A program made the translations under genes and the position numbers. From assembly GCF_001644705.1 (NCBI RefSeq), contig NZ_CP015137.1:990001-1022000 (forward strand): DNA of 32,000 nucleotides. The letters are read 5' to 3'. The notes under the pieces were generated by a model. The model was not told where the DNA came from and ran no database searches. It worked only from the letters and a program-made list of their open reading frames with translations. Positions 11,531 through 19,781 of this stretch are shown here, piece by piece (the stretch's first letter is position 1; each line of letters opens with the position of its first letter). The DNA is from Dickeya solani IPO 2222 (lineage in GTDB: Bacteria > Pseudomonadota > Gammaproteobacteria > Enterobacterales > Enterobacteriaceae).

Positions 11531-13120
11531 ATGATGCAAAGTCATATCGCCCCGTCGGGCATGGCGGTCACGCCGCATCATCTTGCCAGCGCCAGCGCGC
11601 AGCGTATTTTGCGCGCCGGAGGCAACGCCATCGAAGCGATGGTCGCCGCCGCAGCCGCCATTGCGGTGGTCTACCCACACATGAATGGCCTGGGCGGCGA
11701 TGGCTTCTGGCTGATTGTGCCGCCACAGGGCGACCCGATAGCCATCGACGCCAGCGGCGCGGCCGGTTCGCTGGCAACCCGCGCCTTATATGCGGGGGAA
11801 AACCGCATTCCGCACCGTGGCCCGACGGCGGCGCTCACCGTAGCCGGCACCGTGGGCGGCTGGCAGGAAGCGCTGACCTACGCCGCCGAACTGGACATCA
11901 GCCGCCCGCTGCCGCTCGCCAGCCTGCTGGAAGACGCCATCGGTTATGCCCGCCACGGCATTCCGGTCACCCAGTCGCAGGAAGACGCGCTGATTAACCG
12001 CCGTCACGAACTGAGCGATTTCGCCGAATTTTGCCGCGTATTTATGCCGCAGGGCGAGATCCCGCGCACCGGCAGCCGCTTTACCCAGCCGGACCTCGCC
12101 GACACGCTGCAACAACTGGCACAGGACGGGCTGGACAGCTTTTACCGCGGCGCGCTGGCGGCGCGCATGACGGCACAAATGGCAGCGCTGGGCCTGCCGG
12201 TCACCGCCGACGACCTGGCGAATTACCGCGCCCGCCGCACCACACCGCTGGTGTTGAAACACAGTAAGGGCGAGGTGTTTAATCTGGCGCCGCCGACGCA
12301 GGGGCTGGTATCGCTGGCGATTCTCGGCATCACCGACCGTCTGGGGATGGAAGACCTCAGCGACAGCCAGACCATGCATCGTGTGGTGGAAGCCACCAAG
12401 CTGGCGTTTGGCCTGCGCGACAAATACATCACCGACCCGAAACGGATCACCCAGGATATTCAGGCGTTGCTGTCCGACGAGCATCTGACCTCGCTCAGCA
12501 AGCGCATCGATACCCGCGCCGCCGCGCCCTGGGGACAAGGCAAGGGGCCGGGCGACACCGTCTGGTTGGGCGTGTGCGATCGCCACGGCCTGTCGGTGTC
12601 GTTTATCCAGAGCATCTATCACGAATTCGGCAGCGGCATGGTGCTGCCGGGCACCGGCGTTTTGTGGCAGAACCGCGGCGCCTCCTTCAGCCTGGACCCG
12701 GCCCACCTGCTGGCGCTGGAGCCGGGCAAGCAGCCGTTTCACACCCTCAACCCGGCGGCGGCGCGTCTGTCTGACGGACGAACCATGGTGTACGGCTCAA
12801 TGGGCGGTGACGGTCAGCCGCAGACGCAGGCGGCGCTGTTCATCCGCCATGTGATTCAGGGCGTGCCGCTGCAACAGGCGATCACCGCGCCGCGCTGGCT
12901 GCTGGGCCGCACCTGGGGCCAGTCTTCCGACACGCTAAAACTGGAAGATCGCTTTACGCCGGCCACCGTCGAAGCGCTGCGTACGCTGGGTCACGATGTG
13001 GAACTGCTCACCGGATTCAGCGAAACCGTCGGCCACGCCGGCGCCATCGTCCGCCATGTCAACGGCATGCTGGAAGGCGCCAGCGACCCGCGCAGCAACG
13101 GCAGCGCCGCCGGATTTTAG
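11531..13120 (+). CDS. hpxW: Gamma-glutamyltranspeptidase-family Ntn hydrolase, oxamate amidohydrolase type
   Basis: 529 aa with GGNAIEA...NGLGGDGFW at the N-terminus and GDTVWLGV (candidate autoprocessing Thr), with no signal peptide. Its position next to the RpiR gene and an amidase matches the Klebsiella hpxU / hpxWXY layout. The symbol is assigned by analogy. Confidence 0.75.
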   Translation: MMQSHIAPSGMAVTPHHLASASAQRILRAGGNAIEAMVAAAAAIAVVYPHMNGLGGDGFWLIVPPQGDPIAIDASGAAGSLATRALYAGENRIPHRGPTAALTVAGTVGGWQEALTYAAELDISRPLPLASLLEDAIGYARHGIPVTQSQEDALINRRHELSDFAEFCRVFMPQGEIPRTGSRFTQPDLADTLQQLAQDGLDSFYRGALAARMTAQMAALGLPVTADDLANYRARRTTPLVLKHSKGEVFNLAPPTQGLVSLAILGITDRLGMEDLSDSQTMHRVVEATKLAFGLRDKYITDPKRITQDIQALLSDEHLTSLSKRIDTRAAAPWGQGKGPGDTVWLGVCDRHGLSVSFIQSIYHEFGSGMVLPGTGVLWQNRGASFSLDPAHLLALEPGKQPFHTLNPAAARLSDGRTMVYGSMGGDGQPQTQAALFIRHVIQGVPLQQAITAPRWLLGRTWGQSSDTLKLEDRFTPATVEALRTLGHDVELLTGFSETVGHAGAIVRHVNGMLEGASDPRSNGSAAGF

Positions 13121-13164
13121 TCTCACTATCTTGCTAATCTCACACCCCGATAAGGTCTTCACTC

Positions 13165-13362
13165 ATGGAAAATAGGGATATCGATCAGGACGCGCTGGCC
13201 GTGTACCTGCAACAGATGGAAACCCTGTTGCAGCTGGATCTGGATGATGCCTGTCGTCAGGAACTGCATGTGCAATTCAGCCGCATCGCTGCGATGGCGC
13301 AGCCGCTGATGGCGTTCCCGCTGGACGAGCGTCAGGAAGTGGCGGGGGTATACCGGCCATGA
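13165..13362 (+). CDS. Small acidic protein, candidate AtzG/GatC-like accessory subunit of the downstream amidase
   Basis: 65-aa ORF whose stop overlaps the amidase start (ATGA, 13359-13362). Its size, position and helical acidic composition resemble the small partner of AtzE-type amidases. Sequence similarity was not verified. Confidence 0.6.
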   Translation: MENRDIDQDALAVYLQQMETLLQLDLDDACRQELHVQFSRIAAMAQPLMAFPLDERQEVAGVYRP

Positions 13363-14771
13363 ACCCCGCTCAACTGTCTATCCGCGCGTTGCAGGCCGAG
13401 CTGGCGACGGGCCACCTTTCCGCCACCGATATCGCCCGCGACACACTGGCGCGCATCGAAAAATACAATCCGGCGATCAACGCGTACACCGGCGTCACGG
13501 CGCAGCGTATGCAGGCGGAAGCCGCCGACATCGACCGCAAACGTCATCAGGGAGAAACGCTGCCCGCGCTGGCGGCGGTGCCCTACGCGGTGAAAAACCT
13601 GTTTGACGTCGCCGGCGAAACCACGCTGGCCGGCGCCAAACTGTTCAGCCGCCGTGCACCGGCCGCTCAGGACGCGTTTGCGGTGCGTCAGTTGCAGTCC
13701 CGCGGCGCGCTGCTGTCCGGGTTGCTGAACATGGATGCCTACGCTTACGGCTTTACCACCGAAAACAGCCACTACGGCGCCACCCGCAACCCGCACGATC
13801 TGACGCGTATCGCCGGCGGATCTTCCGGCGGCTCGGCTGCGGCGGTGGCGGCCGGACTGGTGAACTTCTCGCTCGGCAGCGACACCAACGGTTCGATCCG
13901 CGTACCCGCTTCGCTGTGCGGCATCTTCGGGTTGAAACCCACCTTCGGACGCCTGTCGCGCCACGGCACCCAGCCGTTTGTCGGCAGTCTCGACCACATC
14001 GGCCCGCTGGCGCGCAGCGCCGACGATCTGGCGCGGGTGTATGACGCGCTGCTGGGGCTCGATCCGGCGGATCGGTTCCAGGCGGATCAACCGCTGCGCT
14101 CAACCGCCCCCTCGCTGGCGAACGAAACGCCGCTGCGCTGCCGGGTGTTGGGCGGCTACTTTGCACAATGGTGCGATGAACAGGCCGGCGCTGCCGTGCA
14201 ACAGGTCGCGACCGCCTTACAAGCCGATGATGAAGCGGTGCTGGACAACGCCGCGCTGGCGCGCACGGCGGCGTTTATTCTTTCCGCCAGCGAAGGCGGC
14301 AACCAGTATCTGCCCGCGCTGCGCGCCACGCCGGACCTGTTTGAACCGCTCTCCCGCGAACGGCTGCTGGCCGGGGCGATGATCCCGGCCGCCTGGTACG
14401 TGCAGGCGCAGCGTTTCCGCGATCATTTCCGCCGCGAGATGCTGGCGCTGTTCGCCGATACCGATCTGTTGATCGCCCCGGCCACGCCGTGCCCGGCAAC
14501 ATCGATCGGTCAGGAAACCATGCGCATCAACCACACCGACCTGCCCATCCGCGCCAGCATGGGCATGCTGACCCAACCGATTTCGTTCGTCGGCCTACCG
14601 GTGGTGACGGTGCCGTTGACGACCGCCAGCGGCCTGCCGATTGGTGTGCAACTGATTGCCGCGCCGTGGCGGGAAGACGTCGCGCTGCGCGCCGCCTGGC
14701 GTCTGGAACAGCTAGGTATCGCCCAGACTTTGCCGCCCGTTACTTTTCACTCACAAGGAATTTCCGCATGA
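13359..14771 (+). CDS. Amidase-signature (Ser-cisSer-Lys) amidohydrolase, AtzE/GatA-like
   Basis: The canonical AS motif [14 protein letters not shown]...[13 protein letters not shown] and the upstream Lys context [12 protein letters not shown] are present. 470 aa. Confidence 0.9.
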
Positions 14772-15148
14772 CGCCTGATATTAATCTGCCTGATGTGCTG
14801 GCCGAGGTCACCACCGCCTTTTACCGTTACGAAAAGGCGCTGACCGGCAACGACATCGAGGTATTGGACGAGCTGTTCTGGCATGACGAACGCACCGTGC
14901 GCTACGGCGCCTCGGAAAACCTGTACGGCATTGAACAGATCCGCGCCTTTCGCACCGCCCGCCCGTCGGCCGGGCTGGATCGCCAGTTGCAAAACACGGT
15001 GATCACCACCTACGGCCGCGATACGGCGGTCGCCAGCACCGAATTTCGTCGTGAAGGCAGCGAGAAAATTGGTCGTCAGATGCAAACCTGGCTACGCACC
15101 GAACAAGGCTGGCGGATCGTGGCGGCTCATGTGAGCCTGATGGTGTAA
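14768..15148 (+). CDS. NTF2-like small protein, AtzH-like (DUF3225-type)
   Basis: The start MTPDINLP at 14768 overlaps the amidase stop (ATGA). [37 protein letters not shown] fits my memory of the AtzH-like/SnoaL-like family pattern. 126 aa. The longer ORF-track version (14489) runs inside the amidase gene. Confidence 0.7.
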
Positions 15149-15160
15149 CGAACGGAACCG

Positions 15161-15193
15161 CGGATAGCCGGTATGTGTTTTACCGGCTATCCG
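15161..15193. terminator. Perfect 13-bp hairpin between the atzH-like gene and the HTH gene (convergent ends)
   Basis: CGGATAGCCGGTA-TGTGTTT-TACCGGCTATCCG. There is no U-tract on either strand. It probably acts as a bidirectional stop or stabiliser. Confidence 0.45.
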
Positions 15194-15199
15194 GATACG

Positions 15200-15697
15200 C
15201 TAACGAGAGGCTGGCGCGGTGGCGAGTATCTCGGCGAGCAAAGAAGGCGATACCGGAATTAATCCCATCTTCAGACCAAAGGGTTTAAAGACCTTGTTGA
15301 TGATATCCGCCGTGTAATTGCCTTTGTCATTCTCGATTTCGGACAAGGTCTTGCGCGACACGCCTACCAGACTGGCGTAGGCATCCTGCTTGAGCCCCAG
15401 AACGCTGAGACGCAATTCCCTGAGCGCGTTTCCCTGCGATATCTCCCCGACCATCATCCTGCGGATAATGCTTTGCATCGCAGACTGTCTCTCACTGGCA
15501 TTGAGTGGTCTGGAATTTTTTGATGCTCTCGCTTTGGGAATATCCGCCGTCTCCGCCACGGCAATGACCGGGGGACGCAGCATCTGCTCCAGCGCCACGT
15601 TACGTTCCTGCACACGCTGCCGCAGCTTTCGTATGGTTTCCTGAACATCATCTGCGCCGGCATAGACATCCGTCGTATTGTTGCGTTTCTGACTCAT
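15200..15697 (-). CDS. 165-aa protein with a C-terminal XRE/HipB-type HTH and an 80-85 aa N-terminal extension; candidate antitoxin/regulator of the upstream kinase
   Basis: The HTH is ISQGNALRELRLSVLGLKQDAYASLVGVSRKTLSEIENDKGNYTADIINKVFKPFGLKMGLIP. The start at M5 of the ORF (15697) has a GTGGGGG RBS and forms an ATGA overlap with the kinase stop. Confidence 0.85.
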   Translation of the reverse strand: MSQKRNNTTDVYAGADDVQETIRKLRQRVQERNVALEQMLRPPVIAVAETADIPKARASKNSRPLNASERQSAMQSIIRRMMVGEISQGNALRELRLSVLGLKQDAYASLVGVSRKTLSEIENDKGNYTADIINKVFKPFGLKMGLIPVSPSLLAEILATAPASR

Positions 15698-17040
15698 AAC
15701 AACCCCCACCGCTGTAGCTTTTCAGGAAGGTAATCAAACCCGATGGAAGGCATGGTTAGGATCGACTCGGGCACACCGCGCGCCTGAAGCCGCGCTTTCA
15801 GTCCAACCAGTTGCACCGCCGTCTCGCGCAATCTCTCCATCAACAGCGCCGGCGGGAGCATGTCGGACAACTGCTCCGCGATCCACTCAAACTGATAATC
15901 ACCGCCGATTTCCAGCGGCTCCGGCCATTTGGTCGCTCTGGCAATGCCTGCCGGGTCGGCCTTCATCGGCGCGAAGTCGTAAATCGGCGCCAGCCGAATC
16001 CCCTGTTCGTCCTTGAGAAACGCGGTATTGCGGCCGTGGTTATCGCTGTTGCCGAAGGCAATATTCAGCACATCGCGGCGCACCCACTCGATCACGAACG
16101 CCGCTTGGTCGAATGGCTTTCCCTCGACGCTGACCGTATGGCTGGACGCTATTTTGGCGATCACCGCCCGAATCGTTTGATCGTGCCGCAGCGCGCTGCC
16201 CGGCCCGGCCCGCAACAGGGAATAAACTGATTCCATGCCATAACGCTTCACGCGCCCATCGCCGGGGAATTCGATATCAAAACGCGGCAACCAGAGCGAC
16301 GGGTAATGCCGCCCCTCTTCCAGACGCATGCCCGCCACAGGAATGGTGTCGAACCCCATCGCGGCTAATTCATGGTAGTAATGAAACTCGGCCCGCAGGA
16401 TGTCGCAGTCAATCTCACTGCGTTGCCCGCGCGGAAACTTCACCAGATAGGCGGTATCGCGGCAGTCGGTCTTATCCTGCCAGGTATCGATCCACACCCG
16501 ATCGTCGGCATTACAACGCAACAGCAGCTTTGGCGCCTCACCGCCCGCCCCTGTAGCGCCCCCGGCAGCGGCACCGCGCTGCTGCGCATAATCCAGAAAA
16601 TCGGCAGCCCGGTTCTTCACATCCTCCACGCTGAAAAAGCGGGTTGCACCTTCATGCCGCACAGGAATCGACTCCTTGATGCGCAAATTACCGACCGGTG
16701 CGATGGTGGCATGCCGCAGCAAGACATAATTTTGCAACGGTGCCGGCAGCCCCGAGAGATCAAGGTGGTCAACCCAATATTTTCGGCTGGCCCCCGCCGG
16801 CATGATGTCATCCAGAAAGCGCATCCATCCGAGCTCACCGCCATCATCAAAGAAGATCCGAACCGGGTAATTGACGGAAACCGCGTGGTGGTCGTCGCAA
16901 TCCATATAGTCAAGGCCATAATCGGACGCATAATCCAGCCGGGTCAGCAGGTAATTATCCTGGTCGCTCTCGGGAAAACCGATCTCGGCAATATCCTGCC
17001 ACGCATTATCGATAAACGCCTGTACAGTCAGTCGTTCCAT
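15694..17040 (-). CDS. HipA-family Ser/Thr protein kinase (full length, catalytic residues intact)
   Basis: Motifs shared with E. coli HipA, which I aligned by eye: FLDDIMPAG; GATGAGGEAPKLLL vs SVAGAQEKTALL; YLVKFPRG vs HIIKLPIG; LPRFD vs VERFD; GNSDNHGRNTAF vs GATDGHAKNFSV; PIYDFAP vs PFYDIIS. The start at M24 of the ORF (MERLTVQ..., 17040) has GGAGGG 4 nt upstream. Confidence 0.88.
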   Translation of the reverse strand: MERLTVQAFIDNAWQDIAEIGFPESDQDNYLLTRLDYASDYGLDYMDCDDHHAVSVNYPVRIFFDDGGELGWMRFLDDIMPAGASRKYWVDHLDLSGLPAPLQNYVLLRHATIAPVGNLRIKESIPVRHEGATRFFSVEDVKNRAADFLDYAQQRGAAAGGATGAGGEAPKLLLRCNADDRVWIDTWQDKTDCRDTAYLVKFPRGQRSEIDCDILRAEFHYYHELAAMGFDTIPVAGMRLEEGRHYPSLWLPRFDIEFPGDGRVKRYGMESVYSLLRAGPGSALRHDQTIRAVIAKIASSHTVSVEGKPFDQAAFVIEWVRRDVLNIAFGNSDNHGRNTAFLKDEQGIRLAPIYDFAPMKADPAGIARATKWPEPLEIGGDYQFEWIAEQLSDMLPPALLMERLRETAVQLVGLKARLQARGVPESILTMPSIGFDYLPEKLQRWGLL

Positions 17041-17070
17041 AGTCCCTCCGCTCTCATTACGTGTAGCATA

Positions 17071-17250
17071 ACACACATAAAATGCAAAAAAGACAATTAA
17101 CGGCACCAAAAGGTTACATTACTTACCCAAACCCGATGTAGCGTTACCTGACGGCATCAAAAACGTCGCCAGCAGACAATGACACCGATAAGTATCATAA
17201 AACACAAAAAAGCCAAATAATGAAACCCATCAGTTACATTACTTGACTAA
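17071..17250. repeat. Imperfect direct repeat of about 55-60 bp, two copies offset by exactly 120 bp, in the kinase leader
   Basis: 17071-17130 and 17191-17250 match at 42/60 positions without gaps. The cores CATAAAA..CAAAAAAG.CAA..AA and GTTACATTACTT (17113-17124 and 17233-17244) are identical. The region is strongly AT-rich. Confidence 0.75.
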
Positions 17251-17312
17251 AAAAGACATCGACTGAAAAAGACATTGGCTAAACCGGTAAAAGCGCCACC
17301 GCTACCGTCGCG

Positions 17313-18260
17313 TCATACCGAATACGGATGCGCCCGATACCAGTGCTCGGCGATATCCTGACGGCGGCAGACCCACACCCGTTCATGCTGCTGGATGTAA
17401 TCGAGGAAACGTTGCAGCGCCCGGAAACGCCCCGGCCGCCCCAGCAGGCGGCAGTGCATGCCGACAGACATCATTTTCGGCGCCTCATCCCCCTCGGCAT
17501 ACAGCACGTCAAAGCTGTCCTTCAGATAGCTGAAAAACTGCTCGCCGCTGTTGAAACCCTGCGGTGACGCGAAGCGCATGTCGTTAGCGTCCAGCGTATA
17601 GGGAACGATCAGATGCGGCCGCACCCCGCCGTCCGCCTGCTTCACCGGCAGCCAGAATGGCAGGTCATCGCCGTAGTAGTCGCTGTCATACAGGAAACCG
17701 CCCTGTTCCAGCACCAGTTGCCGGGTATGGGGGCTGTCGCGTCCGGTGTACCAGCCCAGCGGCGGCTGGCCGAACAACGCCGTGTGCACCGCGATCGCCT
17801 GTTGCAAATGCGCACGCTCGGTGTCGATATCCATATTCTGGTAATGAACCCAGCGCCAGCCGTGGCTGACCACGTCATAGTCCGCCGCTCTGATGGCCTC
17901 GACCACCGCTGGATTGCGCGCCAGCGCCATCGCCACGCCAAACACCGTCAGCGGCAGGCCGCGGCGCTGAAATTCCTGATGAATACGCCAGAAACCGGCG
18001 CGGGGACCGTATTCATAGAGCGAATCCATCGACATGTGCCGCGCCGGGTAGCTGGCGGCGCCGATAATATCGGACAGAAACTGCTCGGAACCGGCGTCAC
18101 CATGCAGCACATGGTTTTCCGCCCCTTCTTCGTAATTGAGCACAAACTGCACCGCGATGCGCGCCTGTCCGGGCCAGCGGGCGTGCGGCGGTTTACCGGC
18201 ATAGCCTATCAGGTCGCGCGGGTAGTCAGGGTCTGAACCCCATAGCTGGGAGAGTGTCAT
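17313..18260 (-). CDS. hpxB: Allantoinase of the polysaccharide-deacetylase (PuuE) type
   Basis: MTLSQLWGSDPDYPRDLIGYAGKPPHARWPGQARIAVQFVLNYEEGAE... is a PuuE-like N-terminus. The start at M21 of the ORF (18260) has an AAGGAA RBS. It is the third gene of the hpxS-A-B-like operon. Confidence 0.85.
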   Translation of the reverse strand: MTLSQLWGSDPDYPRDLIGYAGKPPHARWPGQARIAVQFVLNYEEGAENHVLHGDAGSEQFLSDIIGAASYPARHMSMDSLYEYGPRAGFWRIHQEFQRRGLPLTVFGVAMALARNPAVVEAIRAADYDVVSHGWRWVHYQNMDIDTERAHLQQAIAVHTALFGQPPLGWYTGRDSPHTRQLVLEQGGFLYDSDYYGDDLPFWLPVKQADGGVRPHLIVPYTLDANDMRFASPQGFNSGEQFFSYLKDSFDVLYAEGDEAPKMMSVGMHCRLLGRPGRFRALQRFLDYIQQHERVWVCRRQDIAEHWYRAHPYSV

Positions 18261-18303
18261 AATTTCGTTCCTTATTGTGATGACCGCCACGGCACGCCGC
18301 CGA

Positions 18304-19041
18304 TTAACGCAACATCCCAAATGCGCCGGTCAACGGCTTGTCCAGTGGATAGTCAAGATCGCCGTGTTTGCTGGTGGTCAGCCCCAGCCCGACCAGCGAC
18401 TCCACCATTTTCACCGCCGCGCCCACGCCGTCGATAACCGGAATCCCCAGTTCCTGCGTCAGCGCCTGCGCCAGATCGGCCATACCGCCGCAGCCAAGTA
18501 CAATCGCGCCGGAGCCATCCTGCCGCTTCGCCTGTATACACATTTCCCGCACCTTGTGCTGCGCCAGCCCCTGACCGTCTTCCAGCGCCAGTACCGGCAG
18601 GTCGATGGCGTGCAGCGCGGCGCAGTGATGTTCGAAACCGTAGCGCTGCAACAGATGGCGGGCGATGATCAGCGTGCGCGGCAACGTGGTGACGATGGAA
18701 AAGCGTGTCGCCACCAGCGTCGCCAGATGCATCGCCGCTTCGGCGATGCCCACTACCGGCGCACGCGCCAGTTCCCGCGCCGCCAGCAGGCCGGGGTCGC
18801 CAAAGCAGGCGATGACATGGCCGCTGACGCCCTGCTCGCGGCCCAGCCGAATCTGCTCCAGTACCCCGAGGGTCGCCACCGCTTCGTCAAAATGCCCTTC
18901 TATCGACGGCACGCCCTGCGACGGGCATACCGCCAGAATATCGGTACCGGGTGCAGCCACTCGCCGCGCCGCCTCACCAATGGTTTCGGTCATCGCCAAG
19001 CTGGTGTTGGGGTTGATCACCTGAATCACACATTGGCTCAT
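18304..19041 (-). CDS. hpxA: Asp/Glu/hydantoin racemase family protein, allantoin racemase type
   Basis: 245 aa with the two catalytic Cys contexts (VIACFGDPG and VLGCGGMA) typical of this racemase family. An ATGA overlap links it to the GntR gene. Confidence 0.82.
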   Translation of the reverse strand: MSQCVIQVINPNTSLAMTETIGEAARRVAAPGTDILAVCPSQGVPSIEGHFDEAVATLGVLEQIRLGREQGVSGHVIACFGDPGLLAARELARAPVVGIAEAAMHLATLVATRFSIVTTLPRTLIIARHLLQRYGFEHHCAALHAIDLPVLALEDGQGLAQHKVREMCIQAKRQDGSGAIVLGCGGMADLAQALTQELGIPVIDGVGAAVKMVESLVGLGLTTSKHGDLDYPLDKPLTGAFGMLR

Positions 19042-19781
19042 TCGGCTTGATCCTCTTTATTCCAACCGAGCGGCTTCAGATGGCTGAACAACCGTGAGAA
19101 ATCCGGCGTGGTCGCGCCGTCGCTGCCAAAACGCAGGCTGGCGACGATGTCGGCAAAATGCTGCTGCATGGCGATGGTCAATGCCGTCAGATCCTGATTG
19201 CGCAGCAGCGTCAGCAAATCGTGGTGATCGTGGCAGCGGCAACCCTGCTGCCAGGGCGCGCCGTAGGCGGCGATCACCAGCGACGATCGCAGCGTCAGTT
19301 GCGACACCATGCTGGTCAGCACGCTGTTGCCGGAAATCGCCTGCAACTGTATATGAAATGCGGCCGACAGGCGGATCGCCTCCGGCCCGTTGCGATCCTG
19401 ATGCGCTTTCTCTTCCGCCGCCATCAGCGTCTCCAGCGCCGCCAGGTGCGGCGGCTGGCAGTGCGCGATCACCGCGGGCAGGTTAGCGCACTCCATCAGG
19501 CTGCGGGTCTGGAAGATCTCACGCGCTTCTTCTACCGTCGGCGTCGCCACCTGTGCACCACGTTTGGGCAACAGCGTGACCATTTGCACCGTCGCCAGAC
19601 GCTGCAACACCTTGCGGATCCCGGTACGGCTGACGCCGAACACCTCCGCCAGCGCCTCCTCCGGCAGGCGGGCGCCGGGCAACAATTGATGCTCAACGAT
19701 CGCGTTTAGCAGCGCTTGATAGATAACTTCATCTTTTTGCTCAAAAAACGTCTCTTTTCCGAGACCATAAATATCGCTCAT
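19038..19781 (-). CDS. hpxS: GntR-family (FadR/FCD subfamily) transcriptional regulator
   Basis: The winged HTH is LPGARLPEEALAEVFGVSRTGIRKVLQRLA, followed by an FCD-like helical C-terminal domain. It is the first gene of an operon with the racemase and allantoinase, as in Klebsiella hpxSAB. The symbol is assigned by analogy. Confidence 0.8.
   Translation of the reverse strand: MSDIYGLGKETFFEQKDEVIYQALLNAIVEHQLLPGARLPEEALAEVFGVSRTGIRKVLQRLATVQMVTLLPKRGAQVATPTVEEAREIFQTRSLMECANLPAVIAHCQPPHLAALETLMAAEEKAHQDRNGPEAIRLSAAFHIQLQAISGNSVLTSMVSQLTLRSSLVIAAYGAPWQQGCRCHDHHDLLTLLRNQDLTALTIAMQQHFADIVASLRFGSDGATTPDFSRLFSHLKPLGWNKEDQAE

Follow-up and report, generated by a model that had tools for sequence, protein, structure and literature searches.

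The window analysed here, a 32,000-nt stretch of the chromosome of Dickeya solani IPO 2222 (NZ_CP015137.1, positions 990,001 to 1,022,000 of the forward strand), carries two overlapping genes on its minus strand. The first encodes a serine/threonine kinase of the HipA type and the second a helix-turn-helix (HTH) protein. Comparison with a homologous pair from Shewanella putrefaciens CN-32, for which experimental results have been published, suggests that the two genes form a bona fide, probably active HipA-type toxin–antitoxin (TA) pair and not a new architecture. Specifically, we consider it probable that they constitute a reversed-order hipAB operon encoding a type II TA system, i.e., one in which the gene of the putative kinase toxin precedes that of its putative HTH antitoxin.

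The kinase and its downstream partner

The pair had first been noticed in an inspection of the DNA letters without database searches (hereafter the original prediction), which credited the kinase with the complete set of HipA-type motifs. This description was borne out. The 448-aa protein matched the Pfam family HipA_C (PF07804) with an E-value of 4e-23 and 82.6 bits (cut-off 30.5), and its motifs could be paired with those of Escherichia coli K-12 HipA in a profile–profile alignment of a 16-member family profile to the E. coli protein (hhalign, E 9e-5, spanning residues 26–334). In this alignment, T163 was placed opposite the autophosphorylated S150 of HipA, K201 (within YLVKFP) opposite K181, D333 (within GNSDNHGRN) opposite the catalytic D309, and D355 (within IYDFAP) opposite the Mg-binding D332, while the N-terminal FLDDIMP motif was paired with FFDNLLP. 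The aligned motif residues were invariant across the 16 family members. By its motif set, the protein is predicted to be a complete HipA-type enzyme, for which both catalysis and autophosphorylation at T163 would be expected.

Structure-based searches pointed to the same superfamily. The AlphaFold model of the kinase was of moderate quality (pLDDT 66, pTM 0.64), with the N-terminal 130 residues poorly predicted, and the 23 best matches in the Protein Data Bank (PDB) retrieved with this model through Foldseek were all HipA or HipT proteins (best E 5e-10, 12–17% identity, TM 0.41–0.46). A search of PDB sequences with the family profile recovered no chain of HipA K-12 at E < 0.01 and yielded marginal matches to the catalytic loop of HipT (E ~0.004), and the sole NCBIfam match of the kinase was to YjjJ (PRK09775), at 30.7 bits for a cut-off of 401. 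Sequence comparison thus sets the kinase family far apart from all Hip proteins of solved structure, and the distance of its clade from HipA K-12 equals that of HipT and YjjJ. When 1.84 billion cluster representatives were searched exhaustively with phmmer, 597 relatives were returned at E ≤ 0.001, including 172 at E ≤ 1e-30.

The 165-aa partner is encoded downstream of the kinase, as had been predicted, and its assignment as an HTH protein rests on a Pfam HTH_3 match over residues 92–144 (E 9e-7); a match to the NCBIfam model couple_hipB fell below the cut-off. Among 86 partner homologues, conservation was confined to approximately residues 80–150, corresponding to the HTH and a short tail, and the N-terminal half varied in both sequence and length (homologues of 102 to 175 aa). 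Most type II antitoxins are arranged the other way round. We infer that the variable N-terminal half of the partner contributes to kinase neutralisation. The ATGA shared by the kinase stop and the partner start, which can be read directly from the DNA as originally noted, is predicted to couple the translation of the two genes.

All kinase homologues begin with ME.LT.Q at the position equivalent to the ATG at 17040, and a Shine-Dalgarno motif precedes this codon. A longer, TTG-initiated open reading frame (ORF) of 471 aa (15694–17109) was therefore rejected as the kinase gene. The 272-bp intergenic region upstream of the kinase (17041–17312), which had been described as non-coding, contained no ORF of ≥40 aa and only spurious ORFs of ≤35 aa, and an Rfam search of positions 14900–17500 gave no match.

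Homology to CN-32 HipAB and a similar promoter

One member of the kinase family, P0123 (UniRef A4Y9K0), is a protein of S. putrefaciens CN-32, and its locus (L082) carries a 448-aa and a 152-aa gene adjoining the type I HsdR of genomic island GI21. In Sputcn32_2916/2915, Zhao et al. 2022 described a HipA-domain protein of 448 aa and, encoded next to it with a 4-bp overlap of the two genes, an XRE protein of 152 aa whose HTH is C-terminal (PMC8978831). Since four of the four hipA/hipB cloning primers published in that study matched exactly at the ends of the L082 kinase and partner genes, P0123 and L082 represent CN-32 HipAB. The Dickeya kinase shares 65% identity with CN-32 HipA over 448 of 448 residues, and its partner shares 44% identity with CN-32 HipB over 148 residues (E 2e-42). 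The likeness extends to the kinase-first gene order, the length of the kinase, the C-terminal position of the HTH in a partner of similar size (152 vs 165 aa), the 4-bp ATGA overlap, and a similar promoter, in which palindromes flank the series TTAATTG..TTTTTTG..ATG. There are also differences: CN-32 HipAB resides on GI21, whereas the Dickeya pair occupies a fixed chromosomal locus between metabolic operons, is vertically inherited and does not lie on an excisable island; in addition, the Dickeya pair displays a variant operator and a promoter unit that is tandemly duplicated.

For the CN-32 pair, Zhao et al. 2022 reported that HipA arrests the growth of E. coli, that HipB neutralises HipA, completely so when expressed from the native promoter, that the hipA promoter is repressed 2.1-fold by HipB alone and 2.9-fold by the pair, and that hipAB stabilises a plasmid as well as the genomic islands GI21 and CGI48 (PMC8978831). 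By analogy with this homologue, we infer that toxicity, neutralisation, autorepression and stabilisation would extend to the Dickeya pair. No mechanistic follow-up was found in the literature citing Zhao et al. 2022, and the literature on HipA in Dickeya yielded incidental citations only.

This homology changes the standing of the pair. The original prediction had called it uncharacterised and had been unable to place it in a named Hip family, adding that its claim would fall if the same gene order and partner family proved to belong to a characterised, named module. Because CN-32 HipAB is precisely such a module (PMC8978831), both statements have to be withdrawn, and the pair is to be regarded as a full-length homologue of a TA system that already has a name. 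The TA role that had been proposed alongside them is, given the same homology, the best reading of the locus.

Under the TA reading, the free kinase would phosphorylate an essential cellular protein and growth would stop; in other Hip kinases, the target is an aminoacyl-tRNA synthetase. The partner, made by ATGA-coupled translation, would bind the promoter palindromes through a dimer of its conserved C-terminal HTH, its HTH and variable N-terminal half would bind and neutralise the kinase, and the resulting complex would repress its own operon. Loss of the locus, or a decay of the partner faster than that of the kinase, would then free the kinase, leading to addiction and stabilisation. In the Dickeya pair, the kinase activity, the autophosphorylation of T163, the assignment of the operator, the lability of the antitoxin and the nature of the substrate are all to be taken as putative.

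The regulatory region is consistent with such autoregulation. We searched loci L001–L097 for the family palindrome GAGTA-N6-TACTC, allowing ≤2 mismatches, and found it 33-fold enriched in the 160-nt stretch preceding the kinase gene compared to the rest of the loci (125 sites in 13.9 kb upstream vs 213 in 774 kb elsewhere). Sites grouped at about −35, −78 and −125, and at least one was present in 75 of 87 loci. The CN-32 hipA promoter contains two perfect copies, and to our knowledge the palindrome is absent from the description of this promoter in the CN-32 paper. In the window, the palindrome closest to the kinase (Table 1) follows the Dickeya variant, GTGTR-N6-YACAC. Both half-sites are altered symmetrically, as would be expected of a dimer-binding operator that has co-evolved with its repressor, and we consider this site a putative operator. 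The 56-nt promoter/operator unit is present twice in the window, in copies 75% identical to each other, and the tandem duplication is retained in D. dianthicola and in the sister genus Prodigiosinella; it may provide two promoters or extra operator sites.

Table 1 Features of the kinase–partner locus in the window (positions relative to the first letter of the window)
Feature	Position	Strand	Remarks
Kinase gene (hipA-like Ser/Thr kinase, putative toxin)	15694-17040	-	448-aa ORF
Partner gene (putative antitoxin/autorepressor)	15200-15697	-	165-aa ORF
ATGA kinase-stop/partner-start overlap	15694-15697	-	Read from sequence
Kinase Shine-Dalgarno GGAGGG	17044-17049	-	Precedes ATG at 17040
Proximal operator-like palindrome GTGTGTTATGCTACAC	17061-17076	-	36 nt upstream of kinase ATG; symmetrical variant of family palindrome
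Proximal 56-nt promoter/operator unit (TTAATTG..CTTTTTTG.ATTTTATG)	17076-17131	-	Direct repeat D1; resembles CN-32 PhipA promoter
Distal copy of 56-nt promoter/operator unit	17196-17251	-	120 bp upstream of proximal copy
Hairpin 3' of partner stop, between convergent partner and AtzH-like genes	15161-15193	-	Perfect 12-bp stem

At the other end of the pair, the hairpin located 3' of the partner stop (−28.5 kcal/mol, z −5.8) is a possible terminator. It has no T-run and was not called in a consensus promoter/terminator scan, which returned nothing relevant on the minus strand.

Genomic context and retention in Dickeya

A relative was detected in each of 417 species-representative genomes. The original prediction had proposed a check of whether the kinase-then-HTH order is conserved in the clade, and it is: across 80 loci retrieved from related genomes, a partner homologue lay immediately downstream of the kinase on the same strand in 79. 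The partner start overlapped the kinase stop in 74 of these 79 loci, by 4 nt in 40 of them and by 16 nt in 31. The sole locus without an HTH partner, from Shewanella sairae (L079, 3944–6543), harbours an orphan kinase with 53% identity (467-aa ORF), followed by a convergent gene for a 382-aa protein of unknown function.

The surroundings of the pair varied between genera. In Klebsiella it sits between cdd/DUF218 and an mgl-type ABC operon, in Proteus it adjoins hyf hydrogenase genes, in Shewanella (L082) it adjoins type I restriction–modification and McrBC genes, and in Vibrio (L088–L090, 1–15000) it is part of a TA-rich island with MqsA-like, RelE, CcdAB and ParE proteins. Also encoded on the Vibrio island are a pair of integrases and a small protein with a RelA/SpoT domain. 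Relatives were further found in 63 plasmid records, including 36 from Acinetobacter, with identities, among the matches listed, of ~65% in Rahnella/Ewingella, 49% in Acinetobacter and 37% in Pseudomonas. Relatives at 37–49% identity are common on plasmids of Acinetobacter and Pseudomonas aeruginosa; the plasmid matches from Pseudomonas and Marinobacter cover the HipA gene only. The pair is a self-contained two-gene cassette, found in mutually unrelated contexts.

In the window, the neighbours on one side (11531–15148) are GGT, AtzG-like, AtzE-like amidase and AtzH-like genes, and those on the other side (17313–19781) encode a PuuE-like polysaccharide deacetylase, an Asp/Glu/hydantoin (hydantoin/allantoin) racemase and a GntR/FCD regulator, past which lies a cytosine/purine permease. 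The pair interrupts what appears to be a single nitrogen-heterocycle/ureide catabolic neighbourhood. The earlier view that the pair is metabolically unconnected to the genes around it is a fair one. A metabolic link to the flanking ureide genes was also considered as a general property of the family and rejected, since the contexts differ in other genera.

Some of these contexts invite another interpretation, namely that the pair is an abortive-infection or phage-defence module, in which infection would deplete or inactivate the partner and the freed kinase would arrest the cell before phage release. Such a function would be compatible with the TA reading, and it would fit the location of the CN-32 homologue in an island next to type I restriction–modification and McrBC (see also PMC8978831, Table 3), the integrase/TA island around the Vibrio copy, and the general capacity of TA modules to act against phage (PMC8262856). 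We consider it unlikely for this pair: PADLOC-DB v2 contained no family-level match, the kinase matching PDC-M03A over 40 residues of the catalytic loop (E 4e-4) and the partner matching generic HTH models only, and the copies in Dickeya, Klebsiella and Proteus lie between housekeeping or metabolic genes. The phage collection searched likewise held no record with a homologue of the family, and the abortive-infection role put forward in the original prediction therefore found no direct support.

Within Dickeya, the exact kinase protein is present in many assemblies, and orthologues >90% identical to it occur in at least six species. The pair occupies the same insertion site, between the PuuE-like and AtzH-like genes, in the source genome, in D. 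dianthicola and in Prodigiosinella, whose kinase is 77% identical to the Dickeya protein at the amino acid level, compared to 74–87% for the flanking genes. The kinase gene showed a ratio of non-synonymous to synonymous substitution rates (dN/dS) of 0.07–0.085 and the partner gene one of 0.13, and both genes are under purifying selection. Since the site is shared, the divergence resembles that of the flanking genes and dN/dS is low, we conclude that the pair was inserted before the split of Dickeya and Prodigiosinella and then kept intact by selection.

Retention of this kind argues against the view that the locus is a decaying remnant of a TA module that has lost its function in this genome. 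The existence of shorter kinases in the Dickeya cluster would be in keeping with decay; P0150 (397 aa) and P0155 (399 aa), from D. chrysanthemi and D. solani, are of this type, and may be truncations or reflect different start calls. In the window, however, both ORFs are full length and all invariant residues are present, and together with the low dN/dS of both genes and the conservation of the promoter region across genera this makes a remnant hardly credible.

The same pattern of retention could also reflect domestication, i.e., the conversion of the pair in Dickeya into a resident signalling kinase with its transcription factor, possibly serving the adjacent ureide/allantoin-type genes or growth control. 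The shared insertion site, the divergence and low dN/dS of a kinase evolving in line with its flanking genes, and the close orthologues across Dickeya species would all be expected in that case. Yet in other genera the cassette lies amid unrelated genes and on plasmids. It has also preserved a promoter/operator unit of its own, similar to the autoregulated promoter of CN-32, and the full toxin-type catalytic set. Chromosomal TA loci that persist over long periods are moreover known, and a toxin under strong selection fits a TA system as well. Domestication thus seems quite improbable to us, and genus-wide retention leaves room for a host-beneficial role.

Several points weigh against the TA reading that we favour. 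The experimental results all come from the CN-32 pair, and for this clade kinase activity, a target and a labile antitoxin are predictions. In CN-32, HipB neutralised HipA only partly when both were overexpressed, and autorepression was weak, at 2–3-fold (PMC8978831). The operator sites in the window are degenerate, with three mismatches to the family consensus. Finally, the pair has been passed on vertically and has stayed at a single chromosomal site across Dickeya and Prodigiosinella, which is unusual for a purely selfish, mobile addiction module. We also advance a more specific proposal, tentatively and with some doubt: that the clade acts on a target outside the known set of GltX, TrpS and LysS, that neutralisation is achieved by the N-terminal half of the partner and not by its HTH, and that the pair has been retained in Dickeya and Prodigiosinella since before the genus split in the service of its host (growth control or defence), i.e., for non-selfish reasons.

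Comparison with other Hip systems

For this window, the analysis corrects the record, in that the module belongs to the known reversed-order hipAB kind. The wider family nonetheless merits attention: it extends over at least 417 species-level genomes and onto plasmids of Acinetobacter, Pseudomonas and Rahnella, it is covered by a single experimental paper, on toxicity and stabilisation, and it has an operator unlike that of hipBA. Why a kinase toxin stays at one chromosomal site across a genus could conveniently be studied in Dickeya. For the clade, questions of target, structure, neutralisation mode and genus-wide retention are real but ordinary next ones for a known TA family.

Operons with the kinase gene first are not unique to this family. 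Gerdes et al. 2021 catalogued reversed operons as hipAB sub-clades (clades VI/VII) and as the deep-branching HipE/hipEB group (clade IX), concluded that the reversal of gene order arose several times, and listed 20 reversed modules, none of which was assayed (PMC8262856). The Dickeya pair shares with these operons a kinase gene followed by an HTH HipB gene, its kinase retains N-subdomain-1 as HipA and HipE do, and its family branches deeply from classical HipA, as those operons do. The 20 reversed modules of that study compare with the 417 species genomes in which we detected a relative. Among the rows of Table S1 of PMC8262856 that the analysis covered (all but 564), there was no hipAB or hipEB entry and none of the motifs GNSDNHGRN, PIYDFAP and LPRFD, and the bioRxiv text named no taxa for clade IX.

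With the canonical HipBA systems of E. coli K-12 and S. oneidensis MR-1, the Dickeya pair has in common the kinase motifs, an HTH partner and the logic of a two-gene operon, and putatively also the HipA fold and autoregulation through palindromic operators. Similarity to these systems is very low, at 12–17% identity in structural alignments, and the organisation differs: hipB lies upstream of hipA in canonical operons, whereas the HTH gene is downstream in the Dickeya pair, and the Dickeya partner is twice as long as canonical HipB and carries its HTH C-terminally. The E. coli hipBA operator, TATCC-N8-GGATA, differs from the operator of the Dickeya pair's family, and the target of E. coli HipA is GltX.

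HipBST systems (E. coli O127, Legionella) have a kinase of the same superfamily, and differ in encoding a separate HipS along with an N-terminally truncated HipT of about 290–346 aa. The Dickeya operon, by contrast, comprises two genes without a HipS, and its kinase, at 448 aa, includes the FLDDIMP motif of the N-subdomain. YjjJ/HipH, likewise of this superfamily, is monocistronic and carries a fused N-terminal HTH, whereas a Pfam scan of the Dickeya kinase found no HTH inside the protein, which has its HTH partner encoded as a separate gene.

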